From Escherichia phage vB_EcoS_AVIO78A: a stretch of DNA of 57,811 nt. A program made the translations under genes and the position numbers. The stretch lies in the sequence record MZ726797.1. One strand, 5' to 3'. Below are positions 56,703 through 57,476 of this stretch, one piece after another. Numbering within the stretch: position 1 is the first letter of the stretch; each line of letters starts with the position of its first letter. The notes under the pieces were generated by a model. The model did not search any database. It worked only from the letters and a program-made list of their open reading frames with translations, and was not told the DNA's origin.

Positions 56703-57476
56703 TTGACCCATCATATCTTTATACATCATCAAAACAACATCATCAGGCATATTATCTACATCGCAATGCGGGTTGTGTGATAACGCATACAGTCTGATTT
56801 TCTCCTTCAAATCGCTGACATCGACTACAGGTGGTTCCACTCGTGATACAGGTGGTTCCACTCGTGATACAGGTGGTTCCACTCGTGATACAGGTGGTTC
56901 CACTCGTGATACAGGTGGTTCACAAACCATCACGTTAAACGGTGTCCCGGCGCCTTCGTATTTTTCAAGCAAATCGACCATTACATTTACACATTCCGGG
57001 ATCCAGCCACGGCGCAAACCATTCTGAATCCAACTGTCAGTAACGGTGTGTTCGTTTAAATTTCTGCGTAACACATATCTTGCACATTCAAAATTACCGC
57101 ACATCGCCTCAAACCGTGTCCACACGTCGTGACCGTGAACAGCTTCCAGGATCTGTGAATCAACGTATCTGACACGTTGCCAGTAGTTATTAGCAAAACG
57201 CCTGTGTGGTAATTTCTGACGCAGTTCGGTAACCGGTAGCGTGTGTTTAAGAACAATGTTTTCGTCAGAATGTTGTTCTGGCAAGGGTGACAGTGTGAAG
57301 TCAGTAATCTCTTCAAGAATAATACTGATCGTTTCATATTTAGGATGAAACCTACCGCTTAACCATTGGTTGTAACGACCAACAGTTACCTTAACACCTC
57401 GACGATTAAGGTATTCAACAGCATTTTGTACCCCGCCTTTTAAATCTATCAATTCGTCTAAAAGGTTCTTTTTCAT
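56700..57476 (-). CDS. hypothetical protein with EPPVSRV tandem repeat
   Basis: ORF 56700..57482 trimmed to ATG 57476 with AAGGAGGGG RBS. Confidence 0.55.
   Translation of the reverse strand: MKKNLLDELIDLKGGVQNAVEYLNRRGVKVTVGRYNQWLSGRFHPKYETISIILEEITDFTLSPLPEQHSDENIVLKHTLPVTELRQKLPHRRFANNYWQRVRYVDSQILEAVHGHDVWTRFEAMCGNFECARYVLRRNLNEHTVTDSWIQNGLRRGWIPECVNVMVDLLEKYEGAGTPFNVMVCEPPVSRVEPPVSRVEPPVSRVEPPVSRVEPPVVDVSDLKEKIRLYALSHNPHCDVDNMPDDVVLMMYKDMMGQ
56826..56935. repeat. tandem 21-bp repeat (~5 copies) within the 56700..57476 gene
   Basis: ACAGGTGGTTCCACTCGTGAT repeated contiguously. Confidence 0.9.

Follow-up and report, generated by a model that had tools for sequence, protein, structure and literature searches.

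The genome of Escherichia phage vB_EcoS_AVIO78A (sequence record MZ726797.1, 57,811 nucleotides, analysed over its whole length and called the window below) carries a perfect tandem array of 21-bp units inside its rightmost minus-strand gene, AVIO78A_105. We consider it probable that this array is a slippage-prone, in-frame minisatellite of the variable number tandem repeat (VNTR) type, encoding a tolerated, disordered spacer of variable length between the domains of a helix-turn-helix (HTH)-type DNA-binding protein. The array is a new allele of a repeat that is already annotated in related phages, and it belongs to a well-known kind, namely VNTRs that code for Pro-rich linkers between domains. 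The orthologous arrays of Sasha (gp81, KX987158) and Sergei (gp91, KY002061) are marked 'direct tandem repeat region' in GenBank, in records that give no interpretation; the published AVIO78A paper makes no mention of repeats. The array, its gene and the modules of the encoded protein are located as follows:

56826–56921, minus strand: perfect 21-bp tandem array of 96 nt (Tandem Repeats Finder, count of exact units, run of lag-21 identities)
56700–57476, minus strand: gene AVIO78A_105, 258 amino acids plus stop codon, phrog_25538 / 9NA gp84 family (open reading frame, PHROG profile, orthologues)
57306–57476, minus strand: N-terminal four-helix module, residues 1–57, HTH and XRE/Cro-like by predicted fold
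56949–57248, minus strand: conserved core, residues ~77–176, with an LPHRRF motif and a four-helix DVWTRFE..CGNF..YVLRR..W module
56703–56825, minus strand: C-terminal two-helix module of 41 residues, VDVSDLKEK...PDDVVLMMYKDMMGQ (alignment and AlphaFold2 helices)

Tandem Repeats Finder reports a single array with a period of 21, 4.6 copies, 100% matches and a score of 192. The unit ACAGGTGGTTCCACTCGTGAT occurs exactly four times, starting at 56827, 56848, 56869 and 56890, and has no copy elsewhere in the window; 100 dinucleotide-preserving shuffles gave no match to it at up to three mismatches. What would be a fifth copy keeps its first 11–12 nt and then diverges (CAGGTGGTTCACAAACC), and the run of lag-21 identities, 75 nt long, sets the bounds of the array at 56826 and 56921. 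The initial annotation, which had described five copies ending at 56935, was thus right about the array and wrong about its count, which is four full units and a 12-nt partial one, and its end lies 14 nt too far. On the coding strand the array reads GAACCACCTGTATCACGAGTG four times, followed by GAACCACCTGTA, and in the frame of the minus-strand open reading frame 56700–57476 it yields residues 186–217 of the protein, (EPPVSRV)4-EPPV, in the context ...MVC EPPVSRV x4 EPPV VDVSDL...; the EPPVSRV heptads had therefore been assigned to the correct gene. The array consists of identical units joined head to tail; at 21 bp, a multiple of three, they stay in frame within a real gene, as in a coding minisatellite. 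The heptad peptide contains 31% Pro, with alternating Glu and Arg and balanced charges. The array has a G+C content of 52%, and the coding DNA on its flanks 38–43%.

The comparison among related phages that had been suggested with the first description of the repeat shows that the position of the array is shared and that its copy number ranges from 0 to 13. The closest relatives, with 94–96% identity over the region, are the Sashavirus phages 536P12 and BDX09P1, the E. coli phages PDP46, Bas82 and PJ16, and the Salmonella phages Sasha, Sergei and Solent. The phages 9NA and SP-062/069 and a group of Klebsiella phages are more distant. Phages of the 9NA type are virulent, pac-type headful packagers (PMC4153490). 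The numbers of full units in the window and its closest relatives are:

Solent: 2
BDX09P1: 2
Bas82: 3
536P12: 3
AVIO78A (window): 4
PDP46: 5
PJ16: 5
Sergei: 9
Sasha: 13

An identical 12-nt partial unit closes the array in all nine genomes. Two clusters of proteins at 90% identity, drawn from metagenomes and GenBank, add further alleles of 0, 1, 2, 3, 4, 5 and 7 units, so that the range of 0–13 holds over about 35 alleles. The 0-unit allele, TGT GAACCACCTGTA GTC, lies on a contig of 57 kb whose gene order is normal (L020, ERZ27280906 k141_167464). The genes of Sasha, Sergei and Solent do not differ at any of the 681 nt outside the array, yet hold 13, 9 and 2 units, which indicates that copy number evolves much faster than sequence. 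The units are identical within most genomes, and several arrays hold internal variant units. That each genome has a homogenised array of its own length would follow from a turnover of units that much outpaces point substitution. Between genomes, the unit varies at five positions (GAA/GAG, CCA/GCA, CCT/TCT, TCA/GCA/ACA and GTG/GCG), giving the heptad versions EPPVSRV, EPPVARV, EAPVARV, EPPVTRV and EPPVARA. The annotated arrays of Sasha and Sergei resemble that of the window in position, in the 21-bp period and in the terminal 12-nt partial unit, but differ in unit (GAACCACCTGTAGCACGAGCG, encoding EPPVARA) and in number (13 and 9 copies, against four of EPPVSRV).

The product of AVIO78A_105 is identical to UAW58890.1 and is a 'hypothetical protein' in every record examined. 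Its residues 1–217 match positions 1–217 of the 293-position profile phrog_25538 (E 1.5e-169; category 'unknown function'), which has homologues in 22 phage records, and the 9NA gp84 family is tiny, with 14 representatives among 1.84 billion proteins. Synteny is kept in the window, Bas82, 9NA, KP13-27 and the contigs L020 and L023: AVIO78A_105 stands alone, with the small-terminase gene pointing away from it beyond a repeat-rich intergenic region of 450–610 bp and an HD-domain gene block converging on it.

In the alignment of the 14 family members, the blocks that flank the array are conserved; the left one ends with ...EKYEGTGTPFNVMVC and the right one begins with VDVSDLKEKIR.... In 9NA gp84, the SP-062/069-like proteins and the Klebsiella proteins (37–46% identity), no residues lie between these two blocks. 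At the array position, the two distant members P0014 and P0015 have a short Pro-rich stretch that is not repetitive, and beyond it their C-terminal domain is a different one, which marks this position as a natural domain boundary; the 41-residue C-terminal module of the window is otherwise kept from Sashavirus through 9NA and the Klebsiella phages. The array thus separates domains that are each conserved in their own right, and homologues either lack it or vary in it, as is typical of a linker; the existence of 0-unit alleles and repeat-less orthologues argues that the repeat is neither a catalytic nor a recognition element. The orthologues of the Klebsiella phages Carvaje, phi_KPN_H2 and KP13-27 (L009, L011 and L012), which also lack the heptad repeat, reach 308–311 amino acids because their middle DVWxRF..CG..F..VLR module is tandemly duplicated.

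Structure prediction, also suggested at the outset, agrees with this layout. The AlphaFold2 model (mean predicted local distance difference test score, pLDDT, of 70; predicted TM-score of 0.38) contains the N-terminal four-helix module (residues 5–57, pLDDT 77–90), a second helical module (residues 107–173, pLDDT about 80) and two C-terminal helices (residues 220–234 and 245–255, pLDDT 68–81), whereas residues 180–216, which correspond to the repeat segment, have a pLDDT below 50. The heptad segment is accordingly predicted to be disordered or extended. In the model the N-terminal module has an HTH fold of the XRE/Cro-like type, and the middle module is possibly a second HTH. In BFVD, a 69-residue protein of SP069 resembles the N-terminal module (TM 0.76), the only other match being the SP069 orthologue. 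The family profile matches multi-XRE proteins weakly (P0020, E 4e-5). The product differs from known XRE/Cro regulators in that no family of Pfam or NCBIfam, and hence no curated HTH model, matches it at E≤1. Weak Pfam matches in homologues (DNA_Packaging_2 and DHH_CID, over 16–47 residues with E about 0.01–0.1) were taken as noise, and a sequence search of the PDB returned only formin FH1 regions, which are chance matches to the Pro-rich part. A comparison of the N-terminal and middle modules by hhalign gave an E value of 0.036 over 22 columns, too little for calling a duplication, and the window showed no paralogue of the N-terminal, middle or C-terminal module.

A stand-alone relative of the N-terminal module, the 86-residue protein P0022 (profile E 8e-5), is encoded on a 4-kb contig (L022, Logan SRR30938156) directly upstream of a parA-parB/korB operon. 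This context hints that the N-terminal module type serves as a small regulator elsewhere.

The same genome contains a second array of the same type, which supports the reading of a slippage-prone spacer:

41997–42287: coding VNTR with a 30-bp unit in 9.7 copies, (APTPAAAPVA)n, in the minus-strand gene 41856–42887

It separates the core of a Gp2.5-like ssDNA-binding/annealing protein from the C-terminal module. Like the array of AVIO78A_105, it is a perfect in-frame minisatellite encoding a Pro/Ala-rich spacer before a small conserved C-terminal module, it differs in length between these phages (window, 9.7 copies; Sasha, 5.7 copies, 171 bp; Sergei, 3.7 copies, 111 bp) and it is a 'direct tandem repeat region' in the Sasha and Sergei records. 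It differs in its 30-bp unit and in belonging to an unrelated protein; moreover, 9NA has a different Ala/Pro repeat at this place and none in gp84.

The initial annotation had also placed the array gene next to an iteron-like region, and repeated sites are indeed found directly upstream of it. The small-terminase gene starts at window position 277, and the 611-bp intergenic region between it and AVIO78A_105 crosses the ends of the window. The elements around the gene are:

57528–57542, 57567–57581, 57622–57636, 57654–57668 and 57675–57689, minus strand: five dyad sites of type A, spanning 57528–57689
153–167, minus strand: sixth type-A site, within this intergenic region and immediately upstream of the small-terminase gene
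17–35: degenerate type-A copy
57507–57535, minus strand: candidate sigma-70-like promoter of AVIO78A_105, TTGCAC-N17-TATGCT, by consensus match only
57484–57490: Shine–Dalgarno sequence AAGGAGG of AVIO78A_105
57707–57806, no strand assigned: AT-rich element of 100 bp in the middle of the intergenic region, 26% G+C
56675–56695, no strand assigned: bidirectional intrinsic-terminator hairpin between AVIO78A_105 and the convergent plus-strand genes, a terminator that is also annotated in Sasha and Sergei

The type-A site has the core GCACAACRTGCAYTA within TAGTGCA-N5-TGCAYTA, and all five proximal sites are in one orientation. At up to two mismatches the window contains eight matches, and none of 100 shuffles reached eight; six of them, namely the five proximal sites and the one at 153–167, are in the intergenic region. 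The −35 hexamer of the candidate promoter falls inside the nearest dyad site, and equivalent hexamers occur upstream of the gene in Bas82 and BDX09P1; an automatic promoter scan did not include this candidate among its results.

The N-terminal module exists in two exchangeable types, A in the window and B in BDX09P1, P0003 and P0042. The type-B proteins differ in their N-terminal ~75 residues and are about 95% identical over the remainder. In two type-B genomes the upstream type-A sites are replaced by another repeated motif, with the core CCTATSRTAG:

Window, type A: 5 type-A sites, 0 type-B cores
Bas82, type A: 3 type-A sites, 0 type-B cores
BDX09P1, type B: 1 type-A site, 7 type-B cores
ERZ27280906 contig, type B: 0 type-A sites, 9 type-B cores

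The phages 9NA and those of Klebsiella each have an upstream repeat motif of their own. Because an exchange of the N-terminal module between lineages goes with an exchange of the sites, the AVIO78A_105 protein probably binds the upstream dyad repeats via this module, a prediction drawn from sequence comparison for which this co-variation is the strongest evidence.

A second copy of the AT-rich element lies at 18792–18891 (91% identity; the two copies have 23–26% G+C). Like the intergenic copy, it adjoins dyad sites that belong to the TAATACAGAACGTGTAYTA / TAGTGCATGTTGTGCATTA family, here two in number (18690–18777), and the 18.7-kb module as a whole is flanked by divergent copies of a dispersed 24-mer that resembles a promoter, with the head-gene block downstream of it. 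The modules formed by dyad sites and AT-rich element could be replication origins or late-promoter regions. According to the annotation of Bas82, polymerase, helicase and primase are encoded by the phage. For the AVIO78A_105 protein itself we would slightly prefer the role of a regulator to that of an origin-binding initiator or a packaging accessory.

Where the initial annotation had left the function of the repeat unknown, a predicted role as a dispensable, copy-variable interdomain spacer can now be put forward. The peptide (E-P/A-P-V-S/A/T-R-V/A)n would have been inserted at a pre-existing boundary between an HTH-type core (residues 1–180) and the 41-residue C-terminal module, and the array would lengthen and shorten via replication slippage or unequal recombination between its identical units. 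The N-terminal module would bind the upstream dyad repeats, and the overlap of the candidate promoter with the nearest dyad site suggests that the protein probably autoregulates. The spacer would act as a tether that sets the reach of the C-terminal module from the DNA-bound core; with an assumed extension per residue, 0, 4 and 13 units correspond to fully extended spans of approximately 1, 10 and 29 nm. The tethered C-terminal module would contact a partner in the transcription or replication machinery.

Several points weigh against this interpretation or parts of it. The unit differences between genomes are mostly non-synonymous (five kinds, against one synonymous), a bias that fits relaxed constraint on a spacer, with which DNA-level constraint or diversifying selection would be compatible as well. 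The low pLDDT of the repeat segment derives from an alignment of 14 sequences and is no proof of disorder, and neither Pfam nor hhalign, the sequence comparisons used, gave an HTH identity for the middle module. The N-terminal module adjoins the proximal sites on the DNA, so that one recombination event could have exchanged both without their being linked in function, and BDX09P1 keeps type A at one site near the terminase gene and at both sites of the 18.7-kb locus. Finally, several copy numbers from short-read assemblies, that of the window included, coincide with the values at which de Bruijn assembly collapses a perfect repeat, and part of the allele spectrum may therefore be technical.

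This last point leads to the alternative that survives best, namely that the array exists but that its 4.6 copies represent the minimal traversal of a de Bruijn loop, the true array of the phage being longer. For 150-nt reads, the largest default k of SPAdes is 77. We simulated the de Bruijn graph on the real flanks of the window and scored the shortest traversal: at k=77, true perfect arrays of 4–14 units all yield exactly four units (96 nt), and the ceilings at k=55, 99, 127 and 141 are 3, 5, 6 and 7 units. The published AVIO78A genome was assembled from MiSeq 2x150 reads with SPAdes 3.11.1, so that the observed 96 nt equals the ceiling and the count of the window has to be read as 'at least 4'. 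The perfect arrays of other short-read assemblies likewise bunch at 3, 4 and 5 units. A true 4-unit array would look identical, however, so the coincidence proves nothing; moreover, 150-nt reads are able to span an array of 96 or 117 nt, and SPAdes threads reads through loops. We regard a longer true array as possible, though somewhat doubtful. Dependence of the copy number on assembler settings had been named as what would refute the repeat; the simulation suggests that the number may be capped and leaves the existence of the repeat untouched. Nor is the polymorphism an artefact, since alleles of 0–2 units lie under every ceiling and those of 9 and 13 over every ceiling, and some arrays hold internal variant units.

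A second alternative starts from the same variability and supposes selection on linker length, the copy number adjusting the activity of the protein, either its reach to a partner or a bridging of site clusters, to host or conditions like a contingency locus. Copy number does change fast on an otherwise identical gene background, the array is kept across the Sashaviruses of E. coli and Salmonella and with both N-terminal types, and heptad positions E1, V4 and R6 hardly vary (one metagenome unit has L for E). The second linker VNTR, that of the Gp2.5-like replication protein, behaves alike. A range of 0–13 without a preferred length nevertheless resembles the neutral drift of a tolerated spacer, and 9NA-type phages function with repeat-less orthologues. 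Such tuning appears unlikely to us, and we give little credence to its stronger form, in which rapid gain and loss of heptads, by changing how far the tethered C-terminal module of a DNA-bound regulator or initiator reaches, would let a virulent phage retune early-to-late or replication control across hosts, in parallel in the Gp2.5-like protein.

The near-invariance of E, V and R, together with that of the central P, could also be taken to mean that each heptad is a linear motif docking a host or phage protein, with the copies setting the valency. Closely similar xPPVSRV repeats do occur in unrelated bacterial proteins (P0011 and P0012). Heptad positions 2, 5 and 7 vary freely, though, and the 0-unit allele and the repeat-less orthologues also speak against this reading. 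Multivalent docking is in our opinion quite improbable. Nothing specifically favours either it or the tuning of activity by linker length, and each retains a small share of the probability.

The 21-bp units might instead act at the DNA level, as a phased array of protein-binding sites as in ori-lambda and gene O, with the heptads as a by-product. Their period corresponds to two turns of B-DNA, the gene adjoins the site cluster and the AT-rich element, and third codon positions are nearly constant among alleles. The unit is, however, dissimilar to the upstream sites, and its sole dyad (GTGG-TT-CCAC) is gone in EAPV alleles such as that of PDP46. The array is unaltered in genomes that have exchanged the N-terminal module together with its sites and is missing from 9NA, the Klebsiella relatives and the 0-unit allele; its G+C content is 52%, with no AT-rich segment beside it within the gene. 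In short, likeness to binding sites, a conserved dyad, indispensability and an adjacent AT-rich segment, all features of ori-lambda-type iterons, are lacking, and we hold this reading to be very improbable. A gene in another frame or on the other strand, for instance the plus-strand open reading frame 56773–57027 with its TGGSTRD repeats, or an RNA structure, can be excluded for practical purposes: open reading frames do run across the array in other frames, but the minus-strand frame is the only one that leads into conserved domains, shared by 20 or more homologues, the folding z score is −0.8 and a search of Rfam yields no family above threshold.

An interdomain spacer of tolerated, variable length has parallels in other proteins. 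The (Glu-Pro)n(Lys-Pro)n spacer of TonB and the Ala/Pro-rich linkers of 2-oxo-acid dehydrogenase E2 are extended, charge-patterned and length-tolerant domain separators. They resemble the heptad spacer as Pro-rich segments between functional domains that tolerate a change in length, but belong to unrelated proteins and compartments and are not encoded by perfect DNA tandem arrays; to our knowledge, no copy-number polymorphism between near-identical genomes has been described for them. The lambda O protein has a site-specific DNA-binding N-terminal part, a flexible middle and a partner-binding C-terminal part, and the repeats inside its gene are its own essential sites. AVIO78A_105 shares with this system repeated DNA inside the gene, dyad-symmetric repeats nearby and a similar predicted layout. 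Its internal unit, in contrast to those of ori-lambda, is unrelated to the upstream sites and dispensable, and its product has no sequence or fold match to lambda O. In POU-type bipartite HTH proteins the linker lies between the two modules, whereas the variable linker of AVIO78A_105 follows the second one. A literature search for linker VNTRs in phages gave nothing useful.

These findings are unsurprising to a specialist; their use is mainly practical. Members of the AVIO78A_105 family can be annotated as DNA-binding proteins of the HTH type whose linker varies in length, rather than simply as 'hypothetical', and orthologue lengths of 227–321 amino acids can be read as repeat-number alleles rather than separate genes. 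For the typing of Sashavirus and Nonanavirus phages, the array and the locus of the ssDNA-binding protein are hypervariable markers, for which k-dependent caps at 3, 4, 5, 6 or 7 units are possible in short-read assemblies. In a phage group that molecular work has scarcely touched, the analysis also draws attention to a putative regulator or initiator and to the sites that it probably binds in the control region near the terminase gene. The caveat of the k-mer ceiling, the domain architecture, the probable operator sites and the exchangeable module of HTH plus sites are by-products of the work.

One further sequence related to the array gene is P0001, a 316-residue protein from a JGI metagenome, in which a read-through from upstream of the terminase gene and the first five terminase codons (...MKISD) are fused to codon 7 of the array gene. 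Such a fusion requires an inversion junction, and the contig is therefore probably chimeric.

The initial annotation had listed a third coding repeat, EPVTTAV in three copies at 19221–19270. A repeat is present there, as 2.3 copies of VEPVTTA at 19220–19267. It is a 21-bp repeat in the plus-strand open reading frame 19014–19391, reads VEPVTTA VEPVTTA VEP and is rich in Pro and Val.

The dispersed 24-mer mentioned above, TAAAATAATTCTTGACGRATTACA, consists of an A/T-rich tract followed by TTGAC and occurs at least 12 times in the window, on both strands:

1443–1466, 3599–3622, 5042–5067, 11079–11102, 13302–13325, 14908–14931, 18662–18685, 26785–26808 and 44849–44873, minus sense: 24-nt motif
18974–18997, 50215–50238 and 52178–52202, plus sense: 24-nt motif

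It looks like the standard early promoter of the phage, and the intergenic region upstream of AVIO78A_105 and the terminase gene contains no copy of it. Two identical 29-nt hairpins resembling terminators (TTTGCCCCGGACAGTTCCGGGGCTTTTTT) are located 17.5 kb apart, at 9063–9091 and 26540–26568.

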